NCBI GenBank assembly: GCA_049287025.1
Contig: JBAQFA010000051.1
Span: 1,697 to 65,696, forward strand
Direction of reading: 5' to 3'
Length of the DNA: 64,000 nucleotides
Origin: Candidatus Magasanikiibacteriota bacterium
GTDB taxonomy: Bacteria > Patescibacteriota > Patescibacteriia > Magasanikbacterales > UBA922
In this document: piece after piece, positions 11,897 through 52,986 of the stretch
Layout of the letters: every line of letters starts with the position of its first letter
Numbering within the stretch: the stretch's first letter is position 1
Program-made: the position numbers and the translations under genes
The notes under the pieces: generated by a model
Seen by the model: only the letters and a program-made list of their open reading frames with translations
The model's database searches: none
What the model was told of the DNA's origin: nothing

Positions 11897-12544
11897 TTAT
11901 TTACTTACTATTAAATTTACAGTCCAAGGAATGTAATGAGAATCAGAAATTATTTTTGATTCAATTATTGAAAAATTAGATTTTAATAGTTCCAGATATC
12001 CGGCTTCAGTTTTGATGTTTTGTCCCCGATCTTTCTTCATTAAGAATTTTTCTATTAACGATTGTTTTTCTGTCCATACAGGTTCAGCTAGGATAAAGAC
12101 ACCATTTTTATTTAGTTTTTGTTTTATAGTTTTAATTAGTTCTAATGATGTGGTGTCATCCAAATGATGAAAGATGGCTATTGCTAAAACAATGTCAAAA
12201 TTTGATTCAGATGTTGGTAAATTGTCAACTCCACAACAATAAAAATGGCCATATTTAGGGTTATTTTTTTTTGCAAAATTAATATAATTGATATTTATAT
12301 CACACCCTACATAATCAATCATTTGTTTTTTGTTTAAGGCAGTGAGTATGGATCCAGTGCCACAGCCAACATCGAGGATCCTTTTTCTTTCTATTGGTTT
12401 GATATATTCATTAATAATTCGTTTTTTCCATTTTTCTGCTCCACAAATTTTTTGCCATAGATTATAAATTTTTGGACTTTCTAAGATATTTCTCCAACCG
12501 TGTGAAATGTGAGCAATAAATTTTGTTGATTGTGTTTGATTCAT
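11897..12544 (-). CDS. class I SAM-dependent methyltransferase
   Basis: 215 aa. Motif I LDVGCGTGS, Methyltransf_11/23-like. Diverges from the downstream + strand glycan cluster. Confidence 0.8.
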   Translation of the reverse strand: MNQTQSTKFIAHISHGWRNILESPKIYNLWQKICGAEKWKKRIINEYIKPIERKRILDVGCGTGSILTALNKKQMIDYVGCDININYINFAKKNNPKYGHFYCCGVDNLPTSESNFDIVLAIAIFHHLDDTTSLELIKTIKQKLNKNGVFILAEPVWTEKQSLIEKFLMKKDRGQNIKTEAGYLELLKSNFSIIESKIISDSHYIPWTVNLIVSK

Positions 12545-32400: not shown

Positions 32401-33151
32401 TACCAAACGAGCTTTTACCAAGTCTAATGTTTTCTTTACCTACTTCACTTCTTGGAATGAGGTAAAAATTACTGACAAGCTAAGCTCTATACCAAATGAC
32501 AACCTAGGTTTTATGCCTTTTGGTCCACTCTACAATCCTAAATATGGCGCTCTAGTAAAGACCGTTACTGATCCAAAAGTTTATTTACTTCTAGGAACAG
32601 AAAAATATTGGATTACAAGCGAATCAGTTTTCAATACTCTTAATTATAAATGGAATTGGATTGAAGATATCGACCAAAGATTATTAAACAAATATACCAT
32701 AGGCAGTGAAATCACCTACACTGATCATCATCCTAATTACACCATTGTTAAATACAGCAATGATAGTAAAGTGTACAGACTAGAACCCAACCAAGAAGGT
32801 AAGCAAGTCAAACGTTGGATTACAGATGAAATCATTTTCAACTCTCTAAATTTTAGATGGGACAGAATAGTGACTATTCCTGGCACGGAAGTATATGAAA
32901 ATGGTAATGATCTTACCACTAATAAATTTATCTTCTATAGTCGTCTTGAAGAAGGTATGGAAGGTCTAGAAATTAGATATCTCCAAACCCGCCTTCAAGA
33001 ACTTGGTTATCTAGATAAAGCAATAAAAATTAATGGCCTCTTTGGACCAGCTACCAAACAAGCGGTTATTAAACTCCAACAAGAACATCATCTTACTCCA
33101 GCTGAAGGCTTTACTGGACCGGGGACGAGAAGTGTATTGAATAATTATTAA
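23423..33151 (+). CDS. giant (3242 aa) multi-domain cell-surface protein. N-terminal signal-anchor, Gly-Tyr repeats, Cys-rich module, CarboxypepD_reg-like domain, FN3 domains, right-handed beta-helix region, three tandem Asp-box (BNR) modules, C-terminal peptidoglycan-binding domain.
   Basis: Single uninterrupted ORF. TM segment LIFGIFILLMFSFIFAPSILA. GYGYGYGYGIGYG repeats. Asp-box motifs (YASSTDNGTTWTTS, YTSSTDSGATWTTSS, SSNGGSSWSTT, FSTDAGVTWSTT). FN3-like blocks (PTGLTATPASINRISLSWDSV...YYYKISAVNDAGES; YYFQVKAIDVYGNVGS). C-terminal RYLQTRLQELGYLDKAIKINGLFGPATKQAVIKLQQEHHL matches PG_binding_1. Confidence 0.9.
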   Translation: MVKKIQEILRDKEKISSLIFGIFILLMFSFIFAPSILAQFIRSTGSTGWGYGYGYGYGIGYGTSDGSYRTTGGSLDQYLYGYGYGYLADEDGGSCEVSAGCSAVCGGSGYTNDGGETCYVGGACSAICGVGSNTLTGIITNNSSQIVSGASVSLSGYNYNNTATSDGLYGQYTFNGVPNGTYTVTVNYTGYNASSTSVLISTYTTRSIVLTPSNVSAPITPTGLTATPASINRISLSWDSVAEADSYSLYRSLTDSSYSSVASGITSTSYSDTGLSISTTYYYKISAVNDAGESDLSAAVSTSTLDFSGDGTVCINGDCSYYTLASALVDADSGKTVYVRGGYTSSSESYPIVVPPMSVTVDCQNSGAVIGTSTTSTITVGAGNLKIQNCTLENVGVNVSAGAHLTLVNNIVNLYDAPYRNTFVWIDSGSSDLSVTSNTINIYFTTSQGSVFILPKTRTTLIDGNSFNYLSTATSTVGSTINANYSNSFTLRNNYFYFPDNLGMTMIGALESTVDSIGTSNFTVNNNTLYYRSCASQCNGIKFTAMNYDLNATVTNNIIYSTESNSNVTGLKFITTGASIIASEDYNGFYNLATSVTTTGSNITLTQGGHDLTLDPLFIPNTFNLVPYSSYLDVSGSSDIGAYSGVRTTTINIDDNGSIDYVSVHATSTSIIGNLKNGDTVNLSAGTYNGFTISSSTVLTDNLIISGAGAETIINAGVDENGISLVGINTSTIQNLVVQNASTTNQTFNITRHPFDYNGHAYNSLVEDSGDGMVMWYGAGMTLVNVSSNDQDIASYVGDTPQNWHLSLLTADDDVYISIYFRDDLVTDCAAIKSFYEGFFGNPSADDDFCQEDVFSWNAVSSTYDYTAPTGPTVTTTYQSGTPDIAVSDNYYAGIKFDSANNNTVSNVTSTDNSYGVWFSGTSADNEVYDSALSGSLSYDLYSDATGSGSSLINVNYNITSSSVGEAPIMNGLLARVFVTSSNGAVVGVPVSVEDNQNLHTENLTTNGDGYTDYSGFPYFEITSSTDGLDATTTNNYSPYLISANDFGDYLATSTTEYLTENQQTFTLTMEYSPYPGNLPTVPSDAIIKLIRANDIYYLFYTNTTSEGIYEVYLTTSTSGADGIWSEPGDSIFSDLAPLSEGRPVDIQYNTSGNYFGIFAFTSSTHNIVFTTSSNAVSWSSSVQVPSNQPGGIWGPTVSLKFLPGTNYVIGSWLSSGGHVYLSSNGGSSWSTTDFCTGNYCYGDSLLPESYYLSYLDVGISGTADNHVLHAGLYYSTSTDRVDTDAGILYASSTDNGTTWTTSTVVGDLANDFGTISRLTQMTLDGNGNPGFVYGRLLGFVEDGPNVYVTTSMHYSHKTDNGEWVTSVLGSDNYLDVSGDGDIYIRDLNYIATDKPVVIYAETGSILKMAVNTSTEFSYETVTSTAVSLFYKPSFAYDTGSETAAISYVIGNQLHFSTSSLPMPAESFDGNLSSIDYAGSNSFTRLIYANSQYNYYYSGLESGNYNIYLTTSTNGANGNWSEPTTALSTIRPSIDGSLSFPIFDVRYNSSTNYFGLTAYVSSTDIMIFTTSSDGVTWGSQVEVYTAVDGDFSEWIVGMDFLEGTDLISIGYEFDKIAFSTDAGVTWSTTTMSAMDSNNDDLIGVGITAGPILHAMYRLNTTTYDEFIYTSSTDSGATWTTSSIHFPHSTSASNNRFVLDENNRPSALLYDEIISDGNFNATGTMLFASLEDGIWSTSTIGQISYLAEDPAEPDLGFYGSKPYVVYYGNGNYAEFVYSSSTASPFIFVTSTIDGANTVGEVGRMSTTYDSANTTAAVAYVTASGELRFATSSLVLPEGGEPPIWDGNLSSINDAVDSHTKLIYVDGVYNLFYSRLKNGSYDIQLTTSTSGAPGTWSDNHVDVFENAGIINMGSPYASFDVEYNYERDYFALAVIASSTSEIIISTSSDGGVWNEKLTNIPANLIMGGISFATGTDLMMLGYGLTSTTFLMSNDNLNTFTTGTVDLAGGAIAGLTARYENGTTTVQGTYFKNLDSGNYNIIYFTTHDVNVFETQTVVADLDGYTFTGGFAVDVDGNAGLTYADYSDSNYKFLYYNNGTWVTSTLTKSNNKFSELAFYNNQPYFAYGADDTSSGLINFAYSTSTNTPYDFIVSTNIDNGNIISDGRVSSAYNNASNIVAVAYVDGNGEPRFVTSSLDLSVSESYVSSSPVLSNLIVTSTVDGTGEVTVNFTLNDANQDNVTVSIWYEECSSGCTFNDDGGVTEFGAMINTTTVESLYGVISPDYDPLNTPDKAEQLPLITTASGANVVTSTWLSLLDLPTGNGTYRIYLSAYDHNGDFSTEIAEVVSTTVLIDNVEPTAPGDLSVNITNSSTVILNLPSTTSTDDNFFDYTIRYATSSPLNGGSPEWRSADDPNLADSNFNGATTTVITGLSVSTTYYFQLFAWDSYGNSTSSVEISTTTLAEEPVYTAPVFEGTDYSFATDGTGLVTLIGTVTDADDDSVTLFVDYSLDDGSTWASSTISTTTVGTISTTGTISGITNTSARRSMTIKWNTQADGVITTTIAQLRLTPFDGTGYGSSDTTPEFEVDNVAPDASSLFFVSTDSTSITLGWEAAAGATTYTVSTTADTATTTSNTSTPYIGLTPNTQYYFQVKAIDVYGNVGSYTTVSSTYTNSNIPATVVGTANGQTSMIVSWNNNENPTGTVYKLAYDDDIVIATTTAVTYTVIGLTADTGYSFKVSALNNDSTYTDYSAVSDEVNTDPVGSPVEMTLNTNTSSTFKLSVSGDNHTVTLNSVVEGVSANLTIASDPVTQSYNLNQATNVASIGMTVTVTAVGSNYASFSLATYTPTTNNSSGGGGGDTTPPTNGSMMVNNNATSTTNVNVVLNLGASGATLVTLSNSTDFSNSIWETYNTKKNWTLTSGAGTKTVYVKFRDNEGNTTKVFSDSIELLSNYIDTIITPTETDDDITEIKNTQCPLTPEQAYKSTQSPSIYYITTDCTKRAFTKSNVFFTYFTSWNEVKITDKLSSIPNDNLGFMPFGPLYNPKYGALVKTVTDPKVYLLLGTEKYWITSESVFNTLNYKWNWIEDIDQRLLNKYTIGSEITYTDHHPNYTIVKYSNDSKVYRLEPNQEGKQVKRWITDEIIFNSLNFRWDRIVTIPGTEVYENGNDLTTNKFIFYSRLEEGMEGLEIRYLQTRLQELGYLDKAIKINGLFGPATKQAVIKLQQEHHLTPAEGFTGPGTRSVLNNY
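26640..30010 (+). repeat. three tandem ~1.1 kb coding repeats (~390-aa protein modules) inside the giant gene
   Basis: Modules begin IIKLIRANDIYYLFYTNTTSEGIYEVYLTTSTSGADGIWSEP / FTRLIYANSQYNYYYSGLESGNYNIYLTTSTNGANGNWSEP / HTKLIYVDGVYNLFYSRLKNGSYDIQLTTSTSGAPGTWSD at about 26690, 27871 and 28984. Each ends with a ...L(H/R)F(S/A)TSSL.LP block. Confidence 0.85.
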
Positions 33152-34449: not shown

Positions 34450-35110
34450 AATAAAATTGATAATTACCCCGTTAGGGGTTAAAGATGTTAGGCAGGCACT
34501 TTAGTGCCTGCTAGGAGAAATATAATAATTTAGTCCCATAGGGACGACATAAAAAGGTCAGCTGTAATTTATGGCCAATACCTATACCAATTTATTTGTC
34601 CATATTGTATTTAGTGTTAAGGAAAGAAGACCATTGTTAAATAAAGAATTAAGAAATGAATTATTCCCCTATATTATTGGGATAGCGAAAGCAAAAAATT
34701 TTCAAATACCGATAATAAATGGGGTTGATGACCATGTTCATATCCTAATGTTATTAAAACCAGATTTACCAGTGTCTCAAGCTGTTCAGTTTATTAAAGG
34801 TGGTTCGTCAAAATGGATACATAATAAATTTGATGATTTAAAAATATTTGCCTGGCAAGAAGGTTATGGCGCGTTTAGTGTGAGCACTTCGCAAATAGAC
34901 AGGGTTAAAAAATATATTTTAAACCAGTCAACCCATCATCAAAAAATAGATTTTAAACAAGAATACAAAAAATTATTGGAAATAAATAATATAGAATTTG
35001 AGGAAAAATATTTGTTTTAATTATGCCGTCCCTATGGGACTGTGGGGTTGGGTGATAAATTAACAGGCACTAAAGTGCCTGCCTAACATAAATTTGTCCC
35101 TATGGGACAA
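34450..35110 (+). mobile_element. IS200/IS605-type or REP-associated (RAYT) HuH tyrosine transposase element bounded by inverted hairpins
   Basis: Left flank hairpins ACCCCGTTAGGGGT, GGCAGGCACTTTAGTGCCTGC, GTCCCATAGGGAC. Right flank has the reverse-complement copies GTCCCTATGGGAC (twice) and CAGGCACTAAAGTGCCTGCC. Inserted between gap and pgk. Confidence 0.8.
34571..35020 (+). CDS. tnpA: Y1 HuH transposase, IS200-like / REP-associated tyrosine transposase (TnpA)
   Basis: 149 aa. LFVHIVFSVKERRP (IS200 N-terminal strand), HuH motif DDHVHILM, catalytic Tyr region WQEGYGAFSV. Confidence 0.85.
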   Translation: MANTYTNLFVHIVFSVKERRPLLNKELRNELFPYIIGIAKAKNFQIPIINGVDDHVHILMLLKPDLPVSQAVQFIKGGSSKWIHNKFDDLKIFAWQEGYGAFSVSTSQIDRVKKYILNQSTHHQKIDFKQEYKKLLEINNIEFEEKYLF

Positions 35111-37893: not shown

Positions 37894-40800
37894 ATGTATC
37901 AAGCTAACAACGAAGAACAAAAAGTTCTAAAATATTGGGAAGAAAATAAGACTTTTGAGAAGTCTGTTTCAGAGCGTCCAGAAAATAAGCCATATGTTTT
38001 TTATGATGGCCCACCGTTTGCGACTGGCCTGCCTCACTATGGTCATATTTTAAGCTCGGTTATAAAAGATGTGGTACCAAGATATATGACTATGAAAGGT
38101 TATCGTGTCCGTCGTCGCTGGGGTTGGGATTGTCATGGTCTACCAATTGAAAACATTGTAGAAAAAGAATTAAAAGTCTCGGGTAAAAAAGATGTAGAAG
38201 AAAATTTGGGTGTAGACAAATTTAATGAGACTTGTCGATCAAAAGTTTTGACTTATACTCAAGATTGGAAAAAGATGATCAACCGGATTGGTCGGTGGGT
38301 GGAGTTTGATAATGCTTACAAAACCATGGACTCTACCTATATGGAGTCTGTTTGGTGGTCTCTAAAAACTATTTGGGAAAAGGGTTTGATTTATGAAGGT
38401 CGAAAAGTCCTCATGTATTGCCCTCGTTGTGAAACTCCAGTCTCTAAAGCCGAAATTGCTATGGATGATAGTTATAAGGATATTACTGAGGAAACAGTTG
38501 TTGCGAAATTTAAACTTAAAAATCCAGAAAAACATGGATTGCCAGATAACACATCTATACTCGCATGGACTACTACACCATGGACATTGCCAGGAAATGT
38601 GGCTCTTGCAATTGGTAAAGATATTGATTATGTTTTGGTTCATTATTTTGATTTAGGATTAGAAGCAAAAGAACAGAAGGGGTTTGAGAAATTAAAACCA
38701 AGTGTTTTTAGTTCCTATTGTTTAATTTTAGCCAAGGATAGAGTAAATGAAGTGTTAAAAGAACAACAATATGAATTGATAAAAGAGTTTAAGGGATCAA
38801 ATTTAATTGGGGCAGAATATGAACCACTATTTGATATCCCAGCGATTAATGAAACAGGGAAAAAAGCTTGGTATGTGACTGACGCTGATTTTGTTACGAC
38901 CGAAGAAGGTACTGGTGTAGTACATACGGCCGTTGTGTATGGTGAAGACGATTATAATCTTGGTTTACAAAGAGATTTGCCAGTTGTACCACTCTTGGAT
39001 GACAAAGGACATTTTAATGAATTTGCTCCAGAATTTATAAAAGGTAAATATTTTAAAGGGGCAGAAAAAGAAATTAAAGCTGATTTAGAAACTCGGGGTT
39101 TATTATTTAGTCGAGAACAACATACTCACTCTTATCCACATTGTTGGCGGTGTGATACTCAGCTTTTTTACAATGCTATTTCCGCCTGGTTTATTGATAT
39201 TCAAAAGATTAAAGATAAATTAATTAAATTGAATGAAAAAATTAATTGGTTTCCAGACCATTTGAAGCATGGACGTTTCTTAAATATTTTGGAAACAGCC
39301 CCGGATTGGAATATTTCTCGCAATCGTTTTTGGGCGACACCTTTACCTTTTTGGAAATGTGATAATAAAGAATGTGATAATCAAGTTTGTGTAGGTAGTG
39401 TGGATGAATTAAGAGAAAAAGGTGATCGAGAAATTACTAAGGTTATGTTTATGCGTCATGGTGAAGCTAATCATGAAATAGAAATGGTCAAATCCAGTGA
39501 CGTTAATAAGCACTCATTGACTGAAATTGGTAAAGAACAAATTAAAACTTGTGCCAAAAATATAAAAGACAAAGTGGATATTATAATTAGTTCGCCAGTT
39601 TTGCGTTGTCGAGAAACCGCTGAAATTTTGAGTAAAGAATTAAAGGTTGATATTGTAATTGATGATTTGATTACTGAATATAATCATGGTGGATGGAGTG
39701 AAATAAAACGAGATGAATTAGAAAAAATGGCTAGTTTTATAGAATATAAGAAAATAACTTCTTTAGAAGAAAAATTTAATTATCATTTAGGTGAAAATGG
39801 TGAATCAAGAAAGGAAATTACTGACAGAGTGGATAAATTTCTTAAAAATATTAACAAAAAATATTCTGGTAAGACTGTTTTAATTGTAAGTCATGGTGGT
39901 GTAAATGCTTCCATGAGTAAAATTTTGTCAGATGTTAATTACGAACAATATTTTTTGGAAGAAGACATTAGTCATGAGGCGCCAAAATATTTTTATATTG
40001 ATAATAATAACAAAGGTCTCGATCTTCACAAACATAATGTAGACAAAATCAAACTAAAATGTGACAAGTGTGGCGGCACAATGACAAGAATCCCAGAAGT
40101 GATTGATTGTTGGGTAGAGTCAGCTAGCATGCCATTTGCGGAGTGGCATTATCCATTTGAAAATGTAGAAACATTCAAAAAACGTTTTCCTGGTCAATAC
40201 ATTGCCGAATATATTGCTCAGACCCGAGCATGGTTTTATTACATGCATGTTATGGCAGTATTATTATTTGATGATGTGAGTTTTGAAAATGTGGTTTGTA
40301 CTGGGACGATTCTGAATGACAAAGGCGAGAAATTATCAAAATCAAAAATGAATTATACTGATCCGTGGAAAATCATTGATGAGTTCGGGGTAGATGCTCT
40401 GCGTTATTATCTTATGACTTCGGTTGTAATGCAAGCCGAAAATTTGTATTTCAATGATCGAGAAGTACGCGATGTTTATAACAAGGTCATGAATATTTTG
40501 GATAATGTGTTGTCGTTTTATGGTATGTATCACACGGAGGGCACGGAATTAAAGGATTACACGGATTCAGAAAATGTGTTGGACAAATGGATATTAGCTA
40601 AATTGAATGTATTAGTGGGTGAAGTGACAGAACACATGGACAAATATGATACAGTGCGAGCGGGCAGACCAATTAAAGATTTTATTGATGAACTTTCTAC
40701 TTGGTATTTACGTCGTTCTCGTGATCGTTTCAAAGATGAAAATGAAACTGATAAACAATTTGCTTTAGCCACTTTGCGTCAAGTTCTAGAAACTTTGTCC

Positions 40801-41451
40801 AAGCTTATGGCACCATTTACGCCATTTATTGCGGAGAAAGTTTGGTATACCGTGACTGGTAGTAAAGAGAGTGTACACTTACAGGAGTGGCCAGTGGTTG
40901 ATGAAAAAATGATTGATAAAAAGGTCTTAGGAGATATGGAGTTAGTGAGGAAGATCGTTGAATTAGCATTAGCTCTAAGGGCAGAAACAGGTCTTAAAGT
41001 TAGACAACCTATTAATAATTTGGAAGTTGCTTCAACTGTACTTGGTTCTGATTTTGGTTTGCAATTAAAGATGATGGTTTTGAGTGAAGTTAATGTAAAT
41101 ACCAATATACTAAGCTTGACAAACAAAGTTACACAAAGAGAAGGATATGTTTATAAAGAGAGCGGAGGGCTAAGTGTTGGGATTGATACAAATATAACTC
41201 CTGAACTCAAAAAGCTGGGTTTACTTCGTGAAGTTGTTCGAACGATCAACCAAATCCGTAAAGAACAAAAAATGACAATTGAAGACAGGGTGGTAGTAGA
41301 ATATAGTACAGATGATCAATTGTTGAATAGTGTATTTGTGGATTTTGCTGAAGAATTGAAAAAGTCAGTTTTGGCAACAGAGCTGAAAGTTGGGGAAACT
41401 GGTGTAGAAGTAGAAATTGATGGAAAGAAAATAAAACTAAAAGTATCTTAA
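37894..41451 (+). CDS. ileS: isoleucine--tRNA ligase, type 2 (eukaryote/Thermus-like), with an inserted ~200-aa histidine-phosphatase (PGAM-like) domain
   Basis: HIGH region PPFATGLPHYGHIL (type-2 IleRS signature). KMSKS as KLSKSK. C-terminal block LDLHKHNVDKIKLKCDKCGGTMTRIPEVIDCWVESASMPFA matches the T. thermophilus-type IleRS. An RHGE...SSPVLRCRETA...SHGG domain is inserted at 39411-40011. Confidence 0.92.
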   Translation: MYQANNEEQKVLKYWEENKTFEKSVSERPENKPYVFYDGPPFATGLPHYGHILSSVIKDVVPRYMTMKGYRVRRRWGWDCHGLPIENIVEKELKVSGKKDVEENLGVDKFNETCRSKVLTYTQDWKKMINRIGRWVEFDNAYKTMDSTYMESVWWSLKTIWEKGLIYEGRKVLMYCPRCETPVSKAEIAMDDSYKDITEETVVAKFKLKNPEKHGLPDNTSILAWTTTPWTLPGNVALAIGKDIDYVLVHYFDLGLEAKEQKGFEKLKPSVFSSYCLILAKDRVNEVLKEQQYELIKEFKGSNLIGAEYEPLFDIPAINETGKKAWYVTDADFVTTEEGTGVVHTAVVYGEDDYNLGLQRDLPVVPLLDDKGHFNEFAPEFIKGKYFKGAEKEIKADLETRGLLFSREQHTHSYPHCWRCDTQLFYNAISAWFIDIQKIKDKLIKLNEKINWFPDHLKHGRFLNILETAPDWNISRNRFWATPLPFWKCDNKECDNQVCVGSVDELREKGDREITKVMFMRHGEANHEIEMVKSSDVNKHSLTEIGKEQIKTCAKNIKDKVDIIISSPVLRCRETAEILSKELKVDIVIDDLITEYNHGGWSEIKRDELEKMASFIEYKKITSLEEKFNYHLGENGESRKEITDRVDKFLKNINKKYSGKTVLIVSHGGVNASMSKILSDVNYEQYFLEEDISHEAPKYFYIDNNNKGLDLHKHNVDKIKLKCDKCGGTMTRIPEVIDCWVESASMPFAEWHYPFENVETFKKRFPGQYIAEYIAQTRAWFYYMHVMAVLLFDDVSFENVVCTGTILNDKGEKLSKSKMNYTDPWKIIDEFGVDALRYYLMTSVVMQAENLYFNDREVRDVYNKVMNILDNVLSFYGMYHTEGTELKDYTDSENVLDKWILAKLNVLVGEVTEHMDKYDTVRAGRPIKDFIDELSTWYLRRSRDRFKDENETDKQFALATLRQVLETLSKLMAPFTPFIAEKVWYTVTGSKESVHLQEWPVVDEKMIDKKVLGDMELVRKIVELALALRAETGLKVRQPINNLEVASTVLGSDFGLQLKMMVLSEVNVNTNILSLTNKVTQREGYVYKESGGLSVGIDTNITPELKKLGLLREVVRTINQIRKEQKMTIEDRVVVEYSTDDQLLNSVFVDFAEELKKSVLATELKVGETGVEVEIDGKKIKLKVS
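39411..40011 (+). other. in-frame histidine phosphatase superfamily (branch 1, PGAM-like) domain inserted in the ileS linker loop
   Basis: Motifs MRHGEANHE (catalytic His), LTEIGKEQI, SSPVLRCRETAEIL, LIVSHGGV (second His). Flanked on both sides by bona fide IleRS sequence in the same frame. Confidence 0.8.
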
Positions 41452-41495: not shown

Positions 41496-42452
41496 GTGGT
41501 TTTTACTCATATGTTAGCTACCAGGTTATCACCCCACTTAAAAAAGTTAGTTAATAAACATCCAGCTATTTATAAACAGTTTGTACCGTCGATTAAAGAA
41601 GAAAATGATAATAATATTACACTGGTTGATCCACTAACTGAAGAACATTTTACTCCTGTCCGTGGTTTGGTGCACAAACATAGTAACCGGGCTCTGGTCT
41701 TACTAACTATGAATTGTTCCGCTTATTGTCGCTTTTGCACGCGTCGAAGAAAAGTATCTGATATTGCTAAGGGGGTTATTAGTGAGTCTGATTTGGACAA
41801 CATGGTAAAGTACATAAAGAAACATCCCAAAATTAAAGAATTAATTTTTTCTGGTGGAGATCCTTTGACTGTCCCAATAATTTTGAAAAAAGCTTTAGAA
41901 AAGTTTACCAAGCTATCACAAATAAAAGTAATACGAGTGGGGACACGTTTGATGGTTTCTAATCCTAAACTGATAAATGAAAAAGTGTTTGATGCTTTGC
42001 GTGTGGTAAAAAAACAACCATTATATTTAATGGTGCATTTTGAACATCCAACGGAAATTACCCCAGCTACGATTAAGGCTGTAAAAAAATTACAAACTGT
42101 CTCAACTATGCTTTTGTGTCAGTCAGTCTTTTTAAAAGGTGTAAATGATAAAGTAGAAATTTTGGAAGAATTATTTTCTCGTTTAATTGAAATTGGTGTG
42201 AAGCCCTATTATCTTTCTCGTTGTGATTATGTGTGCGGAGCCGAACATTTTATTGTCCCAATAAAAAAAGAAATAAAAATTTTTACTGAACTGCGTATTC
42301 GTCTTAGTGGAATTGCTTGCCCCATGTATATTATTGATGTGCCAGGTGGAATGGGTAAGGTGCCTGTACCCTTAGATTTTTGGCAGTTTGATAGTAAACA
42401 ATATAAAGATTTTACCGGGAAAAAGTTTAAGATCGTTGAATCAAAAAAATAA
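41496..42452 (+). CDS. KamA-family radical SAM protein (lysine 2,3-aminomutase / EpmB-like)
   Basis: 318 aa. CSAYCRFCTRRR = CxxxCxxC cluster followed by the RRR typical of the KamA family. Confidence 0.8.
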   Translation: MVFTHMLATRLSPHLKKLVNKHPAIYKQFVPSIKEENDNNITLVDPLTEEHFTPVRGLVHKHSNRALVLLTMNCSAYCRFCTRRRKVSDIAKGVISESDLDNMVKYIKKHPKIKELIFSGGDPLTVPIILKKALEKFTKLSQIKVIRVGTRLMVSNPKLINEKVFDALRVVKKQPLYLMVHFEHPTEITPATIKAVKKLQTVSTMLLCQSVFLKGVNDKVEILEELFSRLIEIGVKPYYLSRCDYVCGAEHFIVPIKKEIKIFTELRIRLSGIACPMYIIDVPGGMGKVPVPLDFWQFDSKQYKDFTGKKFKIVESKK

Positions 42453-42479
42453 CTTGATTTTTATATAAAAAAACAACCG

Positions 42480-43235
42480 CTAAGTAAGCGAATGTTTTTA
42501 TATTTTGGCAACGCGCCAGGCTTCATTAAACAATTTTTGTTTACTCAAGTCTTGTGGCGCGTTGTCGGTACGTGCCACCAAGACCCTGCTCAGAAAAGAC
42601 ATGGGTCTTGGCGCCCATTAGCCTAACACCTGTACAGGTGTTAAGGAACGGGAAAGGAGTACCCCGACACGGAAAAGAACTACCAAGTTGACCTATTTAT
42701 ATTCCGCTTGGTCTAGCGGGTTAGGGGTTTAAGAAAATCCCAGTTGCCAAGTATTCTTGGCTGGTCTACTGGACGTCTATGGCCCAGTATCGGATGTCGT
42801 CCCTGATTTCTCTCAGGAGCGTTTGGCGGTCCTCGTGGCTGAGGACGACCCAATGATCTTCCTCTGTCTCTTCCAGAGACGTGAGGTTGTGGTAGCCCCT
42901 TTCCAGGCGGTAGGTAACCGCTCCTTGTTCGGGCGAACCACAATCGTGATCCCAGCGGTCGGTTTTTACTTCGATCTCCACGAAGTAATCACCTCTGTCT
43001 TCGTCGAAGACAAACTTGATTTTAGTGAGAAATTCCCACCGCTTCAAGTCGTAGACCAATTCGACGATTTGATCCAGGGACAGTTCGCAAATAGCACACC
43101 GTTCAGCGTTACGATACAGCATCCTGTCCTCCTTGGCACTTATGTGCCTTTTGGGGTGCACCCCAGCCCCTTGGCAAGGGTGTCCGAGATTTCTCCCGGT
43201 GTAATTTGGCTTAATTAAGGCAAAATTACATCGAT
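42480..43235. other. GC-rich island (much higher GC than flanks): structured non-coding segment plus small endonuclease-like ORF, bounded by a 20-bp perfect palindrome
   Basis: Compositional jump visible by eye. 42480-42765 contains nested perfect hairpins (CAACGCGCCA...TGGCGCGTTG, TAAACAAtttTTGTTTA, CCAAGACCC...GGGTCTTGG, AACACCTGTACAGGTGTT, GCCAAGtattCTTGGC). Palindrome TTTGGCTTAATTAAGGCAAA at 43205-43224. Confidence 0.7.
42766..43122 (-). CDS. small PD-(D/E)xK endonuclease-like protein (Vsr/DUF559-like), 119 aa from the SD-preceded ATG
   Basis: Perfect AGGAGG Shine-Dalgarno 5 nt upstream of the ATG at 43122. Motif GDYFVEIEVK (D...ExK) and RLERGYHNLTSL resemble the DUF559/Vsr core (hxVEhDG..H...D..R...L...GY.V.R). 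High-GC codon usage unlike neighbours. Confidence 0.55.
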   Translation of the reverse strand: MLYRNAERCAICELSLDQIVELVYDLKRWEFLTKIKFVFDEDRGDYFVEIEVKTDRWDHDCGSPEQGAVTYRLERGYHNLTSLEETEEDHWVVLSHEDRQTLLREIRDDIRYWAIDVQ

Positions 43236-43379
43236 AGAAATATCTTTTTTGGTACGATTTTAACAAAACAGTATAGCATATTTTAAAGGTTTTGTCAAGA
43301 TTATCTTATCTTTTGTGTGTAGTTTGACTTTTGTGGTTTTTTTAACTAAAATAAGACAATAACTATTAATTGTTTTAAT

Positions 43380-44900
43380 ATGATAAAATATTCAATTCAA
43401 AATGAAGTCCCAAAATCAGAGGTTTTGATTTTGCCGGTATACAATGACAAAGGCCTAGATAGTTTTGCCAAAAATTTGGATAAAAAATTAGGTGGAATTA
43501 TTAGTAAGGCAATAGAAAATAAAGATTTTGAAGGCAAAAGTAAACAAATGTTGTGGTTGTTTGCCAATGATAAAAATATTCCTCGGATTTTATTGATTGG
43601 TTTAGGGAAAGAAAAAGAATTAAATGTTAGTAATTGGAAAGAAACTGTTGGCAGTGCGATTGTAGCTGTACAAAATAAAAAATTAACCAAATTATCAATG
43701 GCTGTGGGTTTGGGTATGAAAAAATTGGGTGATAAAAAAGCGAGTATGGAAGCTGTGATCGCGACAGAGGTTGGTAGTTATTCTTATGATGAACACAAGA
43801 CTGACGAAGAAGCCAAAACTGTAGCTTTGCAAAGTGTAGTTTTGGTGGGAGATTTTGATAATAAACAAAAGAAAAATTTAGAAAGCGGAATAGTTGATGG
43901 CCAAGTGATTGGTGGAGGAATAAATTTTGCTCGTCATCTTGGTAATATTCCACCTACGATTATGACTCCAGCTTTGTTAGCCAATGAAGCAGTCAAGCTT
44001 GGTAAAAATAATAAAAAAGTAAAAGTGAAAGTTTTATCTAGAGAAGAAATGACCAAACTGGGCATGGGGTGTTTATTAGCCGTGGCTCGCGGTTCAAAAT
44101 TAGAACCAAAATTTATTATTGTTGAATATACTGGCGCCGATAAAAAGCAAAAACCGAGTGTGTTAGTTGGCAAAGGGATTACTTATGATTCTGGTGGAAT
44201 TTCCCTCAAGCCCGGAGATGCTCTTATGGAAATGAAATATGATATGTTGGGAGCAGCCACAGTTTTGGGAGCAGTAAAAGTTTTGGCAGAATTGGATGTA
44301 AAAAAGAATGTGGTTGTGTTAGTTCCAGCTGCCGAAAATATGCCTAGTGGTGATGCTTTTCGTCCAGATGATATTTTGACAGCCATGAATGGTAAGACAG
44401 TAGAGATTTTAAACACTGATGCCGAAGGACGTTTAATCTTAGCTGATGCCTTATGTTATGCACACAAATATGAACCAAAAGAAGTGATTGATTTGGCGAC
44501 TTTAACAGGCGCGTGTGTGGCCGCTCTTGGTGGTGAGAGGTCTGGTTTATTTTCTCCCGAAGATAATTTAGTAGAAAAATTATTAAAATCTTCTGAAGCT
44601 GTGGGAGAAAAGTTATGGCGTTTACCTCTAGGTGAAGAATATGGTGAAGCTATGAAAAGTAAAGTTGCGGATATAAAGAATATGGGGGGAGTGGGTGGTA
44701 GTCGTTATGGTACAGCCAGTACAGCGGCCGCTTTTTTACAATTTTTTACGCAAGAGAAAAAAGGTGATGAAATGGTGTCTTACCCTTGGGCGCATATTGA
44801 TTTGGCTAGTGCTTTGTTTTCCAATTCTTCTGGTAAATCTTGGTTGCGTCATGGAGCTAATGGGTTTGGGGTACAAACGTTGGTAGAATACCTGCGTTGA
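43380..44900 (+). CDS. pepA: leucyl aminopeptidase (M17 family)
   Basis: 506 aa. NTDAEGRL signature, conserved M17 metal-binding blocks (VGKGITYDSGG, DAFRPDDI). Confidence 0.93.
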   Translation: MIKYSIQNEVPKSEVLILPVYNDKGLDSFAKNLDKKLGGIISKAIENKDFEGKSKQMLWLFANDKNIPRILLIGLGKEKELNVSNWKETVGSAIVAVQNKKLTKLSMAVGLGMKKLGDKKASMEAVIATEVGSYSYDEHKTDEEAKTVALQSVVLVGDFDNKQKKNLESGIVDGQVIGGGINFARHLGNIPPTIMTPALLANEAVKLGKNNKKVKVKVLSREEMTKLGMGCLLAVARGSKLEPKFIIVEYTGADKKQKPSVLVGKGITYDSGGISLKPGDALMEMKYDMLGAATVLGAVKVLAELDVKKNVVVLVPAAENMPSGDAFRPDDILTAMNGKTVEILNTDAEGRLILADALCYAHKYEPKEVIDLATLTGACVAALGGERSGLFSPEDNLVEKLLKSSEAVGEKLWRLPLGEEYGEAMKSKVADIKNMGGVGGSRYGTASTAAAFLQFFTQEKKGDEMVSYPWAHIDLASALFSNSSGKSWLRHGANGFGVQTLVEYLR

Positions 44901-44984
44901 GGAAAAAAGTTTAGTTGGTAAATTATTCCATTCGGCCTGAGCTCATGACCGAAGGCTAATTGACCTAATTTCTAATATCTAAAT

Positions 44985-45048
44985 AATGTCAAATGACAAA
45001 TTTTTAGAATTGGGCATTAGGATTTTTGTTAGAAATTAGAATAATTAG
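44985..45048 (+). repeat. intergenic repeat family copy B
   Basis: AATGTCAAATGACAAATTTTTAGAATTGGGCATTAGGATTTTTGTTAGAAATTAGAATAATTAG, about 85% identical to copy A. 24 nt upstream of the U32 peptidase gene. Confidence 0.8.
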
Positions 45049-45071
45049 GAATTAGAAATTTTGGAGTTTTT

Positions 45072-46346
45072 ATGAAGAAAAAAAATAAACAAAATAAATT
45101 AGAACTTTTGGCTCCAGCAGGAAGCCCTGAAAAGTTACTTTATGCTTTTGCCTATGGAGCCGATGCAGTCTACATGGGTATACCAGATTTTAGTTTACGC
45201 GTAAGAATAAATAAATTTGGTCTGGATGATGTAAAAATTGCAATTGAAACAGCGCATAAATTAAAAAAGAAAATTTATGTGACGGCCAATATTTATGCTC
45301 ATAACGAACATCTAGAAAAATTACCAGTTTATTTAAAAAAATTAAATCAGTGGCGACCAGATGCTTTGATTATTTCTGATCCTGGAGTAATGATGCTCGC
45401 GAAAAAGTATGCGCCAAAAATTAAAATTCATGTTTCTACTCAGGCCAATGTGACCAATTGGGCAGCCGCCAAATTTTGGGCAGATTCTGGAGCCAGTCGG
45501 ATTATTTTGGGTCGGGAAGTGACCCTAAAAGAAATAAAAGAGATTCATAAAAAATATCCCAAAATTGAATTGGAGTATTTTGTGCATGGCGCCATGTGTA
45601 TGAGTTATTCTGGCCGGTGTATGTTGAGTGCTTGGTTAACTGGTCGATCAGCCAATCTTGGTGACTGTGCTCAACCTTGTCGTTGGAAATACGGTGTAGA
45701 TAGTATCAGTGCAGAGTTAAGCGAACCTAATCGTCCAGACATGAAAATTCCCGTAGAAGAAGATCAAAATGGCACTTATATTTTTAATTCCAAAGACCTG
45801 TGTTTGATAGAATATTTACCAGATTTAATTGATGCTGGGGTTGTTAGTTTTAAAATCGAAGGTCGAGCTAAGAGTGTGGCGTATCTTTCTACTATTGTTA
45901 AGGCTTATTGTGAAGGGTTAAATGTAGTAGAAAGAAGAAAGGTAAAAGTAAAAAGTAGTGAATTGAAAAAAATTAAAAAGAAATATCTGGATATTTTAAT
46001 GACCCGAGGTTATACAACTGGTTTTTTGTTTGGTCGGGATACTGTAGAACAAAATACCGAGTTTAGTCATATTAATGGTGAAGAACAATTTGTGGGTGAA
46101 GTAGTAGATTGTGTTAAATTTTATAAAAAATATTTAGCCATTGTCAAAGTTCATAATGTTATAAAAGTTGGTGATAAAGTAAAGATAATGCAACCCGAGG
46201 GCGATGACTTGAGAATAACTGTTAAAAAGATGTATAATAAGGATGATAAAGAAATTGAGAGTGCTCATGGAGGGACGCAGGAATTGATGAAGATTTTGGT
46301 AAATAAAGAAATTCAAAAGTATTCTATATTGTTTAAGGCAAAATAA
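45072..46346 (+). CDS. U32-family peptidase (collagenase-like / RlhA-UbiU-like)
   Basis: 424 aa. LELLAPAGSPEKLLYAFAYGADAVYMG and Cys-containing motif CMSYSGRCMLS...CAQPCRWKY typical of U32 proteins. Confidence 0.85.
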   Translation: MKKKNKQNKLELLAPAGSPEKLLYAFAYGADAVYMGIPDFSLRVRINKFGLDDVKIAIETAHKLKKKIYVTANIYAHNEHLEKLPVYLKKLNQWRPDALIISDPGVMMLAKKYAPKIKIHVSTQANVTNWAAAKFWADSGASRIILGREVTLKEIKEIHKKYPKIELEYFVHGAMCMSYSGRCMLSAWLTGRSANLGDCAQPCRWKYGVDSISAELSEPNRPDMKIPVEEDQNGTYIFNSKDLCLIEYLPDLIDAGVVSFKIEGRAKSVAYLSTIVKAYCEGLNVVERRKVKVKSSELKKIKKKYLDILMTRGYTTGFLFGRDTVEQNTEFSHINGEEQFVGEVVDCVKFYKKYLAIVKVHNVIKVGDKVKIMQPEGDDLRITVKKMYNKDDKEIESAHGGTQELMKILVNKEIQKYSILFKAK

Positions 46347-47951: not shown

Positions 47952-48081
47952 TGTCTGTTTAGTAAGATAGGATTGCTGTATTTATTAAACAAAATCTGTT
48001 ATAAATCGCTTAATTTAGCTAAATTTTGGCCAAATGAAGCGGTTATATAACAATGTCGGCAAATCCGACTGAAAGGGAATC

Positions 48082-48459
48082 ATGAACCGCATGGTGGTTG
48101 TTGTGATCCTCGTTCTGCAGAGTCTGGCGACGGGTTGTATGGCCACGAGTGGTCATCAGTTCGATCGCGAGGTCGCCTGGGACAAATACCAGGCGGAGCA
48201 GAAGAAGGCTCAGGCCGAGGCTAAGGCCAAGGCCGACATCGATGGGGATAACATCCCCGACGCCAAGGACAACTGCCCGTTCGTGAAAACCTACGGGCAG
48301 GATCAGCGTGACTTCGACGCTGATGGCGTGGGCGACGCCTGCGACAACTGCCCGGAGAAGTCGAACGCCGATCAGGCGAACAACGACGCTGACAAGCTCG
48401 GCGACGCCTGCGACCCGTTCCCGCAATGCAACCCACAGTTCTACAACTGCGGGAGGTAG
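48082..48459 (+). CDS. lipoprotein with thrombospondin type-3 (TSP3) Ca-binding repeats, encoded in a high-GC foreign-looking island
   Basis: Signal peptide plus lipobox LATGC. Repeats [41 protein letters not shown] of the TSP3 type seen in OmpA-like proteins of high-GC Proteobacteria. GC-rich codon usage foreign to the rest of the window. Several overlapping alternative-frame ORFs are high-GC artefacts. Confidence 0.75.
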
Positions 48460-48550
48460 CGTGGGGCTACGGACGAGGCGGGTGGATAGGTTCCAAAAGC
48501 AAGGCCAAGCGCTTTGCCAATGGACGATCCACTCGCCTCGAGACTATGAC

Positions 48551-49692: not shown

Positions 49693-51276
49693 ATGCTAAA
49701 AAAAGCCAAAACTCAGAAAAAACCAATAGTTTTAGCCATTTTGGATGGTTTTGCTTTGGCGAGTCAAAAAAATAAAGGCAATGCTATTACTCCTGAGACC
49801 GCTCCGCATATTTTTTCTTATCTCAAAAAATATTCCAATTCCACTCTCAAAACTTTTGGAGAAAATGTTGGTTTGTTTCCTGAACAACAGGGTAATTCTG
49901 AAGCTGGGCATATTAATATTGGCGCGGGCAGAATTGTAAAACAAGATTTGGTTGTGATTTCCGAAGCGATTCATGATGGCACTTTTTTCAAAAATGAAGC
50001 TTTCAAACAAGCGATTCACCATATCAAAAAATACAATACCTCGGCTCATGTGATGGGATTATTGACTGATGGTAATAGCGCCCATGCATATCCTGAACAT
50101 TTTTATGCCATGTTAGAATTATTCCGTCGAGAAGGCATAGACAAAGTTTATTTGCATTTGTTTACTGATGGCCGAGATTCGTCTCCGCATGGATCGGCTC
50201 ATTTTCTCAAGGAGTTGCGTACTCATATGTTGGGTAAAGAAAAGATTGCCACTATCATGGGTCGGTTTTATGCTATGGATAGAAACAAGATTTGGGAGAG
50301 AACACAAAAAGCTTATGAAGCCATGGTTTTGGGCAAGGGTTGTGTCGCTCCGAGTGCCGAAGAAGCTTTGTCACAATCATACAATCGAGGTGATACTGAT
50401 GAATATATTTGTCCTTCTGTCATTGTAGAAAACCCTTCGATAGGATCAGGACCAGCTAAACCAACTGGTCTGATAAAAGATAATGATGCTATTTTTTTTG
50501 TTAATGCTAGAAGTGATCGAGCGCGTCAGATTACCAAAGCTTTTGTACAATCAGATTTTAATAAAATGAATCCTGGTTCTTTCAAAAGAACCAAACAACC
50601 AAAAAATACTCGCTTTGTCGCTATGACAGATTTTGGTCCAGATTTGCCAGATATTTTTACGGCTTTTCCTAGCCCAGATATTGCCAATTGTTTGCCTTTG
50701 GTAATAGATGGCAATTATAAACAATTGTATATTTCTGAAACCGAAAAATATGCGCACGTCACTTACTTTATCAATGGCGGTTTTGCTGACCCCCTCAATG
50801 GCGAAGAGCGAGAATTAATAAAATCTCCGCCAATTCGTTCTTATGCGGATAAGCCTGAGATGAATACCAAATTAATGGTAGAAAAAATTGTAAAATATTT
50901 AAACACGGGCAAATATAATTTTATTTGTGTTAATTTTCCTAATACTGATATGGTGGGTCATACGGGAGATTTAGTGGCTGCACAAAAAGCCGTGACAATT
51001 GTTGATAATGCTGTAGCAAAAATTGTAGAAATAATTTTGAAATTAGATGGGCAAATGTTAATTACGGCTGATCATGGCAATGCTGATGAAATGGTAAATG
51101 AAAAAACTGGAGAGATTATGACTGAGCACACCAAAAATCCTGTGCCATTTATTTTAGTCAAAAAAGGTAAAAAAATAAAAATGAAAAATGGTATTTTGGC
51201 TGATGTCGCGCCCACCCTTTTGAAAATGATGGAAATAAAACAGCCGGAAGAAATGACAGGCAAACCTTTGGTTTGA
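49693..51276 (+). CDS. gpmI: 2,3-bisphosphoglycerate-independent phosphoglycerate mutase, copy 1
   Basis: 527 aa. VLAILDGFAL N-terminus, GNSEAGH (catalytic Ser), ADHGNA C-terminal block. Confidence 0.92.
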   Translation: MLKKAKTQKKPIVLAILDGFALASQKNKGNAITPETAPHIFSYLKKYSNSTLKTFGENVGLFPEQQGNSEAGHINIGAGRIVKQDLVVISEAIHDGTFFKNEAFKQAIHHIKKYNTSAHVMGLLTDGNSAHAYPEHFYAMLELFRREGIDKVYLHLFTDGRDSSPHGSAHFLKELRTHMLGKEKIATIMGRFYAMDRNKIWERTQKAYEAMVLGKGCVAPSAEEALSQSYNRGDTDEYICPSVIVENPSIGSGPAKPTGLIKDNDAIFFVNARSDRARQITKAFVQSDFNKMNPGSFKRTKQPKNTRFVAMTDFGPDLPDIFTAFPSPDIANCLPLVIDGNYKQLYISETEKYAHVTYFINGGFADPLNGEERELIKSPPIRSYADKPEMNTKLMVEKIVKYLNTGKYNFICVNFPNTDMVGHTGDLVAAQKAVTIVDNAVAKIVEIILKLDGQMLITADHGNADEMVNEKTGEIMTEHTKNPVPFILVKKGKKIKMKNGILADVAPTLLKMMEIKQPEEMTGKPLV

Positions 51277-51411: not shown

Positions 51412-52986
51412 ATGAAAAACAAACCAGTTGTTTTGGCTATCCTCGACGGTTGGGGCGTGGCGCCCGATGGAGAAGGGAATGCCATTACTCAGGCTAAACT
51501 ACCAAATTTTAATAAATTTGTTCGTGAATATCCAGTCATGACTCTGCATGCTTCGGGCAATGAGGTTGGTCTTATGTTTGGTCAAATGGGAAATTCTGAA
51601 GTCGGACATCTAAACATTGGTGCCGGCCGAGTTTATTATCAATCATTACCACGAATTACTCATCATGTTAATGATGGGAGTTTTTTTGCCAATAAAGCTT
51701 TTGTAAGAGCGGCTGAACAAGTGAAAAAAAATGACTCTGCTCTGCATATTATCGGCCTAATTAGTCCGGGCAATGTCCATTCTAGCCAAGATCATTGTTT
51801 TGCTTTGCTTGATTTTGCCAAAAGACAGAAAATAAAAAATGTGTATATTCATGTAATTCTAGATGGTCGAGATTGTATATATAATTCGGGAATTGATTTT
51901 GTCAAAGAATTACAAAAGAAAATAAAAGAATATCATCGCGGAGAAATTGCTTCTATTTCTGGTCGTTTTTTTGCTATGGATAGAGACAACCGTTGGGATC
52001 GGACCGAAAAAGCTTACAATGCGATGGCCATGGGGGTGGCAGAAAAATATTTTAAAGATCCAATTGATGCAATTGAAGAATCATATAAACGAGAAGTTTA
52101 TGATGAAGAATTTGTCCCAGTGGTAATTGGTAAAGAAGGTAAACCAACCGCGACTATAAAAAATGGTGATGCTTGTATATTTTTTAATTTTCGTCCGGAT
52201 CGAGCGCGACAATTAACCAAAGCCTTTGTCTTGCCTGGGTTTAATAAATTTACCAGAGAATATATTAAGGATTTATGTTTTGTGACTATGACAGAATATG
52301 AAAAAGAATTACCCATTGTCGTGGCTTATGGCCCACAGGTAGTACACAATTCTTTGGCCGAGACAATTAGTAAAGCAGGATTAAAACAATTTCATGTGGC
52401 TGAGACTACTAAGTATGCACATATTACATATTTTCTCAATGGTACAGTGGAAGACCCGTTTCCTTGTGAAGAAAGAAAAATTGTTCCCTCAGTTATGGTG
52501 TCATCTTATGATCAGGCACCAGAAATGTCTGCCGGAGAAATCACCAAGGAAGTAGTTAAGGCTATAGAATCAGGAAAGTACGATGCTGTTATGTTGAACT
52601 ATGCCAATGTTGATATGGTGGGGCATACTGGTAAAATGAAAGCTACAATTGAAGCGTGTGAAATGGTGGACAAATGTTTAGGAACAGTGGCCGAACATGT
52701 GTTGGCAAAAAATGGTGTCTTACTTATTACCGCTGATCATGGCAATGCCGAAGAAGTAAAAAATTTACAAACTGGAGCCATTGATAAAGAACATTCTACC
52801 AATCCAGTTCCTTTTATAATTATTAGTAATGAATTGCGTGGTCAAGCTGGACCAACTGGAGATCCACCTGAGGGTGATCTTAGTTTGATGCCACCGGTAG
52901 GGATGTTAGGTGATGTTGCTCCAACCATGCTTTCAATTATGGGAGTAGAAGTGCCAAAGGAGATGACAGGACGGAGTTTGATTTGA
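51412..52986 (+). CDS. gpmI: 2,3-bisphosphoglycerate-independent phosphoglycerate mutase, copy 2 (divergent tandem paralog)
   Basis: 524 aa. VVLAILDGWGVAPDG, GNSEVGH, ADHGNAEE. Same domain order as copy 1 but clearly diverged. Confidence 0.9.
   Translation: MKNKPVVLAILDGWGVAPDGEGNAITQAKLPNFNKFVREYPVMTLHASGNEVGLMFGQMGNSEVGHLNIGAGRVYYQSLPRITHHVNDGSFFANKAFVRAAEQVKKNDSALHIIGLISPGNVHSSQDHCFALLDFAKRQKIKNVYIHVILDGRDCIYNSGIDFVKELQKKIKEYHRGEIASISGRFFAMDRDNRWDRTEKAYNAMAMGVAEKYFKDPIDAIEESYKREVYDEEFVPVVIGKEGKPTATIKNGDACIFFNFRPDRARQLTKAFVLPGFNKFTREYIKDLCFVTMTEYEKELPIVVAYGPQVVHNSLAETISKAGLKQFHVAETTKYAHITYFLNGTVEDPFPCEERKIVPSVMVSSYDQAPEMSAGEITKEVVKAIESGKYDAVMLNYANVDMVGHTGKMKATIEACEMVDKCLGTVAEHVLAKNGVLLITADHGNAEEVKNLQTGAIDKEHSTNPVPFIIISNELRGQAGPTGDPPEGDLSLMPPVGMLGDVAPTMLSIMGVEVPKEMTGRSLI

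Follow-up and report, generated by a model that had tools for sequence, protein, structure and literature searches.

A GC-rich, strongly folded orphan-gene island in a Magasanikiibacteriota genome: a candidate lineage-specific accessory cassette

The subject of this study is a small GC-rich island (island 1) found in a 64,000-nt stretch of DNA (the window, GC 34.3%) from an AT-rich metagenome-assembled genome (MAG) of Candidatus Magasanikiibacteriota, where it occupies a 927-nt spacer separating a KamA-family radical-SAM gene (41496-42452, plus strand) from pepA (43380-44900, plus strand). The GC-rich payload of this island is compositionally alien to the host, and its minus-strand open reading frame (ORF), P0001, has a true coding periodicity. 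We lean towards the view that island 1 is a lineage-specific accessory ORFan cassette, located between the terminator of the KamA gene and the promoter of pepA and expressed as a highly folded mRNA. It may belong to a small class of single-gene cassettes that are GC-rich and hyper-structured, that have similar AT-rich promoter/leader modules and whose ORFs differ among relatives.

Composition, integrity and distribution of island 1

The core of island 1 (42505-43200) has a GC content of 51%, against 34.3% for the whole window, and 42500-43200 is the highest-GC 700-nt window of the stretch, tied with a second island near 48000. A preliminary description of this DNA had reported a GC-rich island between the KamA-like gene and pepA, and in this it was right (0.51 versus 0.343 GC). 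The coding sequence deviates in the same direction: the GC content at third codon positions (GC3) is 0.64 in P0001, whereas host genes have about 0.26, and on codon usage P0001 scores -0.40, outside the host range of +0.10 to +0.33. In composition and codon use, island 1 thus departs from its host as a horizontally acquired islet does.

An abrupt change of GC content in a metagenome-assembled genome could of course point to an assembly chimera or to a contaminant in the contig. We find this hardly credible, because the window, Logan contig SRR28062879_39932 and contig JBAQOB010000049.1 of GCA_049304355.1, three assemblies whose contigs end at different points, are 100% identical through both junctions, so that the island is not a one-off artefact, and because the promoter and terminator form a coherent set of signals spanning the borders. 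All other assemblies are likewise 100% identical to the window over island 1, hence they offer no polymorphism for the study of covariation or dN/dS.

The distribution of the island was followed through the KamA homologues, a PepA-seeded scan of genome contigs having returned distant Proteobacteria only and no member of the candidate phyla radiation (CPR). The closest relative has a KamA 93% identical to that of the window, and DNA about 86% identical; its homology at the DNA level ends exactly at the KamA stop codon (42452) and restarts at the gene for a U32 peptidase (45083); where the window has island 1 and pepA (42453-45082), this relative has a NIF3-like gene between KamA and U32 (L024, 5147-6350). 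A more distant relative (L029) shows KamA, then 105 nt, then pepA. In every relative examined, including three further ones, 40-190 nt follow KamA and island 1 is absent, so that the ancestral state is one without the island. The KamA-U32 interval is a recurrent replacement site, more distant relatives showing either arrangement. The idea of a compact foreign module, put forward in the preliminary description together with the proposal to look for the island at the same locus in relatives, is therefore upheld in so far as the island is compact, compositionally foreign and lineage-specific. No further copy was found in the window or in the loci fetched from relatives, a blastn search of phages and plasmids gave no match to the island, and neither did exact-pattern scans of viral contigs.

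The predicted transcript and its folding

Island 1 is laid out, as predicted from its signals, as a single minus-strand transcription unit of about 0.8 kb, every expression signal of the island being on that strand. A predicted sigma70-type promoter (43270-43298, minus strand; TTGACA, a 17-nt spacer and the extended -10 element TGcTATACT) matches the consensus at 11 of 12 positions, has TG ahead of its -10 element, and lies within AT-rich DNA, directed into the island. At the island edge stands an AT-rich leader hairpin (43200-43230, minus strand), an imperfect palindrome of 29-31 nt that includes the motif GCTTAATTAAGGCAAAATT and whose stem is UGUAAUUU/AAAUUACA. A perfect 20-bp palindrome had been claimed for this edge; the position is correct, the perfection is not, since TTTGGCTTAATTAAGGCAAA is symmetrical at 18 of 20 positions, with a G/G (C/C) mismatch, and the only truly perfect 20-nt palindrome of the island is TAACACCTGTACAGGTGTTA, at 42624-42643.

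The leader is followed by a GC-rich 5' untranslated region (UTR; 43135-43199, minus strand) with three hairpins: CCGGGA/UCUCGG, CACCCU/GGGGUG around GGGGTGCACCCC, and GGCAC/GUGCC. The last of these has 2 mismatches in 16 to a repetitive extragenic palindrome (REP)-like hairpin flanking an IS200-type transposase at 34.5 kb, a likeness that may be due to chance. A sigma54 promoter, considered at TGGCAC-N5-TGCC, was rejected for its wrong spacing. The Shine-Dalgarno (SD) site is AGGAGG (43128-43133, minus strand), 5 nt ahead of the ATG; it had been described as perfect and as rare in this genome, and it is both, reading without mismatch from 43133 to 43128 while an SD core of any kind is present in only 2 of 35 long host ORFs, which makes the site one more foreign signal of the island. 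In several host genes, among them those at 49693 and 62584, a TATAAT box stands 11-12 nt ahead of the ATG, and their leaders are probably very short.

P0001 itself (42766-43122, minus strand, ATG at 43122) encodes 118 amino acids. The ORF had thus been correctly recognised and only its length overstated, the 119 residues announced being 119 codons with the stop included (43122 to 42766). Its GC contents at the three codon positions are 0.60/0.31/0.64, and its three-base periodicity is significant overall (p = 2.6e-7) and in both halves. As the periodicity is strong in the ORF and missing in the region 3' of it (p = 0.24), we treat P0001 as a real, or recently real, gene. A plus-strand ORF of 153 amino acids was rejected: it is a codon-aligned mirror of the minus-strand ORF, without SD or ATG, has 41% T at the second codon position, and its sole Pfam matches are weak and at chance level.

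The region downstream of the ORF is, by prediction, a structured 3' UTR of about 260 nt (42505-42765, minus strand), made up of a three-hairpin junction (42766-42690), a perfect-palindrome hairpin (42652-42614), an 11-bp hairpin (42613-42576) and a long hairpin closed by 10 bp (42564-42509). The unit ends at a predicted intrinsic terminator (42467-42499, minus strand; stem from 42491 to 42477, then a U run), which is bidirectional and serves the convergent KamA gene as well.

Folding of the segment 42460-42770 was compared with that of 100 shuffled sequences, none of which did as well: z is -8.0 for the minus strand and -5.6 for the plus strand. For the full 798-nt unit the corresponding values are -11.4 and -9.4. 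Unexpectedly, the ORF of P0001 takes part in this structure; its z is -4.2 when dinucleotide shuffles serve as the reference, -4.6 with permuted codons and -3.6 with permuted synonymous codons, and sliding windows over it give values of -3 to -5. For comparison, the host background (68 windows) has a mean of -0.09 (sd 1.27), with 4% of windows below -3, and a GC-rich control, coding DNA of 63%-GC genomes (n = 50), has a mean of -0.41 (sd 1.07) and a minimum of -2.4. The earlier impression of a segment too structured to be mere spacer is well founded, its folding being far stronger than expected by chance. Of the run of nested, perfect GC-rich hairpins described at 42480-42765, the density is real (stems of 10, 11 and 10 bp besides the three-hairpin junction), the nesting mostly not, as most of the hairpins stand side by side and only two are nested. 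A long-range helix of 16 bp is also predicted between the ORF (42905-42890) and the 3' UTR (42685-42670, the arm 42670-42685 of the minus strand); it contains 4 G.U pairs and has a pair probability of about 1.0. A contiguous helix of that length appeared in 12 of 1000 minus-strand shuffles (p about 0.012), and the plus strand has no equivalent. The start region of P0001 is predicted to lie inside a local hairpin, GGACAG/CUGUCC.

If island 1 is a cassette expressed as an mRNA, transcription would start at about 43262, behind a strong host-type promoter, and pass through the AT-rich leader hairpin, the hairpin-rich 5' UTR, AGGAGG, the ORF and the 3' UTR to the terminator at about 42467, and what was first called a structured non-coding segment would be the mRNA's own 3' UTR. 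The 3' UTR, the hairpins of the ORF and the 16-bp fold-back helix together would make a compact transcript, which would resist nucleases and be translated sparingly. Such an arrangement recalls the hok/sok-type mRNAs, which are compact, with long-range pairing of 3' sequence with an upstream region and a local hairpin around the start region (both of which are predictions here). However, the toxins of that type are small and hydrophobic, whereas P0001 would be an acidic soluble product of 118 residues; no antisense RNA came to light, and pairing between the SD site and the 3' UTR does not exceed chance.

One may ask whether the RNA is not itself the product, that is, a large RNA, structured over some 0.8 kb and either non-coding or dual-function, with an ORF that would be secondary or incidental. 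Several observations go in this direction: the extreme z over the whole unit, an ORF structure exceeding that of synonymous permutations, the stronger folding of the sense strand, the long-range helix with its G.U pairs, and the multi-way junction of the 3' domain. We nevertheless consider this rather improbable, given the periodicity of the ORF (p = 2.6e-7), the perfect SD site at optimal spacing and the ATG, the lack of any Rfam family, and the fact that the three other cassettes discussed below encode plausible proteins (with TSP3 repeats, an OmpA domain and a lipoprotein signal). The Rfam scan advised in the preliminary description returned no family for the structured segment at gathering or permissive thresholds: Rfam 15 gave no match at its gathering threshold in the 64-kb window, and only chance-level ones (E 0.26-0.6) in 42000-43700. 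ARAGORN detected no tRNA or tmRNA, and a tRNA-like cloverleaf noticed after the stop codon was discarded for its wrong stem lengths and this same negative result. The whole window is devoid of tRNA genes and of Rfam families in our searches.

The same hairpins could also be read as the scars of neutral debris, in which case a foreign fragment would have entered by illegitimate recombination, its gene would be non-functional, and the hairpins would have formed by quasi-palindrome correction or template switching, processes that act more readily on GC-rich DNA. It is true that both strands fold strongly, that the island has perfect palindromes, one of them 20 nt long, whose centres are palindromic too, and that the protein is an orphan. 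It is also true that CTTGGC/GCCAAG occurs 5 times in the island (42504-43250), about 14-fold above expectation and mainly in hairpin stems, and that TTTGGC is present at both GC/AT borders (42504-42509 and 43205-43210), which we regard as a weak clue to how the cassette arrived. Debris seems an unlikely explanation to us, because an intact ORF is accompanied by a strong promoter, an SD site and a terminator, and because the sense strand is the more structured one in 32 of 42 windows over the four cassettes discussed here; this strand bias points to the transcript, or to one DNA strand, rather than to duplex symmetry. Furthermore, at the locus of the second island a GC-rich 3' hairpin is kept between genomes about 14% diverged although the ORF between the flanks differs, which argues for maintenance rather than decay.

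P0001, nucleases and known mobile elements

The preliminary description had taken the minus-strand ORF for a Vsr/DUF559-like endonuclease of the PD-(D/E)xK type, part of a selfish homing module with a cognate structured RNA or recognition region. P0001 matched no Pfam family at E ≤ 1 or E ≤ 10 (neither Vsr, PF03852, nor DUF559, PF04480, nor any other PD-(D/E)xK family), no NCBIfam family at E ≤ 10, nothing in PHROG or PADLOC, and no PDB sequence at E ≤ 10. A Foldseek search of the PDB with a predicted model gave nothing at E ≤ 0.001, and no nuclease was among the top matches; these matches carry little weight, as the AlphaFold2 (AF2) model, computed from the single sequence with no alignment, is of low confidence (pLDDT 50). 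Like Vsr/DUF559 enzymes, P0001 is small, and its D...ExK string falls in a beta-hairpin of this model; what separates it from them is the lack of any sequence or profile match, an acidic pI and, as far as this low-confidence model goes, the lack of a structural match. PD-(D/E)xK enzymes have an alpha-beta-beta-beta-alpha-beta core with the catalytic D and (D/E)xK on adjacent strands; in P0001 the D-to-ExK spacing is only 6-11 residues. The string GDYFVEIEVK is encoded by an 8-bp hairpin (TTACTTCG/CGAAGTAA), so that the motif may reflect nucleic-acid pairing. The stretches VFDED, SLEET and VLSHED are likewise encoded by perfect hairpins, and the acidic and hydrophobic composition of P0001 partly mirrors the pairing of GAN with NTC codons. 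With a pI of 4.6, a net charge of about -13 and 28 D+E versus 15 K+R, the protein is acidic, which argues against a DNA-binding nuclease. An HNH-like string (DH...NL..L...H) was also considered and dropped, having no profile support in a protein of this charge.

A homing-endonuclease-like gene with its recognition region would agree with the sporadic and foreign character of the island, and the D...ExK and DH...NL..L...H strings can indeed be read in P0001. We think this very unlikely, however. Besides the missing family, PDB and fold matches, the pI of 4.6 and the hairpin-encoded motif, P0001 has no Pfam, PHROG or NCBIfam match to any homing family (LAGLIDADG, GIY-YIG, HNH, His-Cys, PD-(D/E)xK, EDxHD); the island occupies intergenic DNA, with a terminator on one side and a promoter on the other, and lies neither within an intron or intein nor within or next to a homing target gene; and scans of the window, of the fetched loci and of public collections brought no other copy to light. 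The preliminary description had itself named the lack of PD-(D/E)xK similarity and of covariation support as grounds for giving up its nuclease module, and on these grounds the module fails.

Searches independent of Rfam and Pfam did not provide P0001 with a family: a word-indexed search of 5.8 billion protein clusters returned P0001 alone, an exhaustive HMMER search of 1.8 billion representatives returned P0001 plus one spurious WW-repeat match, and scans of metagenome and viral contigs with back-translated P0001 returned nothing. The protein has no signal peptide, and its sole three cysteines fall within a CxxC...HxC pattern (C9, C12, H59, C61). The product may be a small acidic cytosolic protein that might bind zinc, and from its composition an inhibitor, immunity or mimic-type protein appears likelier than a nuclease.

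As for mobility, the sole mobility gene among the ORFs scanned is a Y1_Tnp gene of the IS200-type/RAYT-like kind (34571-35017, plus strand; E = 1.7e-29), in the interval 34490-35108 between gap and pgk, 7.5 kb upstream of island 1. Its flanks carry three copies of a REP-like hairpin, GTCCCWWWGGGAC, found nowhere else in the window, and a hairpin, GCAGGCACTnnAGTGCCTGC, present once on each side in inverted orientation. Could island 1 be a single-stranded DNA cargo of this transposase, in the way of palindrome-associated (PATE) or REP-type elements, with hairpins as recognition ends? The transposase is there with its REP-like flanks, the island hairpin GGCACTTATGTGCC is a near-match to the flank hairpin AGGCACTWWAGTGCCT (2 mismatches in 16, with only 3 matches in the window), TTAC adjoins the GC border, and there are subterminal hairpins at both ends of the island. 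With REP/RAYT and IS200/IS605 elements the island shares its wealth of hairpins, the lack of terminal inverted repeats and the presence of a Y1 transposase gene in the same genome. We judge the idea quite unlikely all the same, since the main flank hairpin GTCCCWWWGGGAC is absent from island 1, the similarity is short (by our estimate about 0.03-0.1 matches are expected by chance) and the two island ends are unlike; the island is, in addition, single-copy, much longer than REPs or their doublets (REPINs), and provided with a gene of its own. The likeness between the two hairpins remains a weak clue to its arrival.

No integrase, tyrosine recombinase or reverse transcriptase was detected by Pfam in 38 of the 39 ORFs of at least 140 amino acids (the valyl-tRNA synthetase ORF, 54977-57640, was left out). 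This matters for a comparison with integron cassettes, which are also small single-ORF units, mostly ORFans of variable GC content with a hairpin-forming 3' element, placed downstream of a resident promoter and site, and whose content at a conserved locus varies among relatives. Here, in contrast, the scanned ORFs include no tyrosine recombinase, and there is no array, only a single cassette, or two in tandem in the relative. The only GTTRRRY/RYYYAAC-like pair (CCTTAAC...GTTAGGC, judged by eye and with no attC model) belongs to a 26-nt perfect hairpin (42620-42645), too short for an attC site, and the 3' structured regions span 260-350 nt, against 57-141 nt.

The closest general parallel is with the islets and ORFans of Patescibacteria/CPR bacteria, which resemble island 1 in their strain-specific presence, deviant GC content and codon use, and lack of an assigned function; in one study of groundwater Patescibacteria, 61.6% of genes in horizontally acquired regions had no assigned function (PMC12455944). 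Island 1 differs in its size, one gene in about 0.7 kb where such islands comprise several, in having borders without integrase or tRNA, and in its extreme structure, which runs through the coding region.

A second locus and a possible class of cassettes

Five kb from island 1 lies a second GC-rich island (island 2, 47995-48525; GC 60%), whose ORF (48082-48459, plus strand; GC3 0.81) encodes a 125-residue lipoprotein-like protein with thrombospondin type-3 (TSP3) repeats and is followed by a hairpin trailer. Full-length homologues of this protein occur in genomes of 63-66% GC and have a matching GC3, one of them being named Deltaproteobacteria by its source. The homologues fold with z = +0.3 and +0.8, versus -5.0 for the ORF of island 2. 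At the same locus, the closest relative (L025) has kept the promoter, the leader and a GC-rich 3' hairpin, GGACGAGGCGGGTGG...CCACTCGCCTCGAG, around an ORF that is unrelated. It has in fact two GC-rich cassettes there in tandem, A (10215-10975) and B (11195-12100), the first with a 155-residue Cys-rich lipoprotein-like ORF without Pfam match, the second with a 152-residue OmpA-domain ORF followed by a 350-nt hairpin trailer. Each has an AGGAG(G) SD site and a common, repeated AT-rich hairpin module, TTCCAACGTG...CGTTGGAAACAACGTGTTTA, and a homologous GC-rich leader precedes the two unrelated ORFs (score 46, shuffle mean 19, reached in 0 of 300 shuffles). Beside this locus, between it and enolase, the closest relative also carries an AbiEii/AbiEi-like toxin-antitoxin pair (L024, 8993-10280) which is absent from the window.

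The four cassette ORFs fold with z = -3.6, -5.0, -2.3 and -5.1, versus +2.6 to -1.0 for host genes, and since the TSP3 homologues found elsewhere are unstructured, hyper-structure appears to be a property of the cassettes of this lineage and not of GC-rich genes in general. The expression modules are also alike. The promoter/leader of island 1 resembles that of the island-2 locus (score 41, shuffle mean 23.7, sd 4.1; 1 of 500 shuffles) and that of the relative's cassette locus (score 37; 2 of 500 shuffles). The motif GCTTAAWTWAGCYAAAWTT has 5 matches in the window, versus 0.13 expected, and is found 47-56 nt downstream of the -10 element in the leaders of both islands; one further match, within the valyl-tRNA synthetase gene, looks like chance. 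The terminator of island 1 resembles those after island 2 and after cassette B of the relative (score 40, shuffle mean 24; 1 of 300 shuffles). A metagenome scan for the 3' hairpin of island 2 returned nothing, although a JGI contig has this hairpin, the collection being evidently without that sample.

A number of points weigh against an accessory cassette expressed as a folded mRNA, and they should be set out together. The similarities between promoters, leaders and terminators are short and only moderately significant, and the score for the terminators is inflated by common runs of A and T. The high GC content could stem from selection for pairing and not from foreign origin. The plus strand folds very well too, and several of the hairpins are, as DNA, perfect palindromes with loops that are palindromic in turn (GTAC, TGCA); the structure could therefore have its role, or its origin, in the DNA itself. 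The minimum-energy fold pairs the SD site with CUCCUU of the 3' UTR, yet this pairing does not exceed chance. No homologues of P0001 or of its RNA were found in the collections searched, which leaves the coding reading without support from conservation and the structure without support from covariation. Finally, with a model of pLDDT 50, any role for the protein is a guess from its composition.

Other genes of the window deserve a brief mention. The isoleucyl-tRNA synthetase (37894-41451) contains an inserted histidine-phosphatase domain (His_Phos_1, residues 518-685, about 39362-40027; E = 1.5e-29), and the enzyme of the closest relative (1035 amino acids) is without this insertion. Two tandem paralogues (49693-51273 and 51412-52983) encode cofactor-independent phosphoglycerate mutase. 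An ORF of 3242 amino acids (23423-33151), with fibronectin-III, carboxypeptidase-regulatory-like and peptidoglycan-binding domains, probably encodes a giant surface protein.

Taken alone, island 1 would just add to the orphan genes that CPR bacteria have acquired. As an ORFan islet it is of a general kind already known; what is unusual is the reproducible hyper-structure together with the hint of a cassette platform. Four unrelated cassette ORFs structured beyond both host and GC-rich controls are not what one expects of ordinary horizontal transfer, and the similar promoter/leader modules, as well as a locus whose ORF differs between close relatives, add to the significance of this observation. 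A bolder idea, which we mention as improbable but worth stating, is that the lineage holds a gene-capture or gene-exchange system without known recombinase, in which GC-rich single-gene cassettes would be installed or swapped behind a conserved AT-rich promoter/leader platform carrying GCTTAAWTWAGCYAAAWTT. Its cassettes would then encode unrelated, mostly orphan or surface proteins, with sense transcripts folded far beyond their homologues elsewhere, and folding of this degree would be a sign either of a single-stranded intermediate (RNA or ssDNA) or of strong selection on the mRNAs to be stable or exported. Should the same pattern hold across more genomes, it would describe the way in which ultra-small episymbiotic bacteria take up and express accessory genes of foreign origin, and the combination of high GC content, strongly negative folding z and platform motif would provide a signature by which such cassettes could be searched for.

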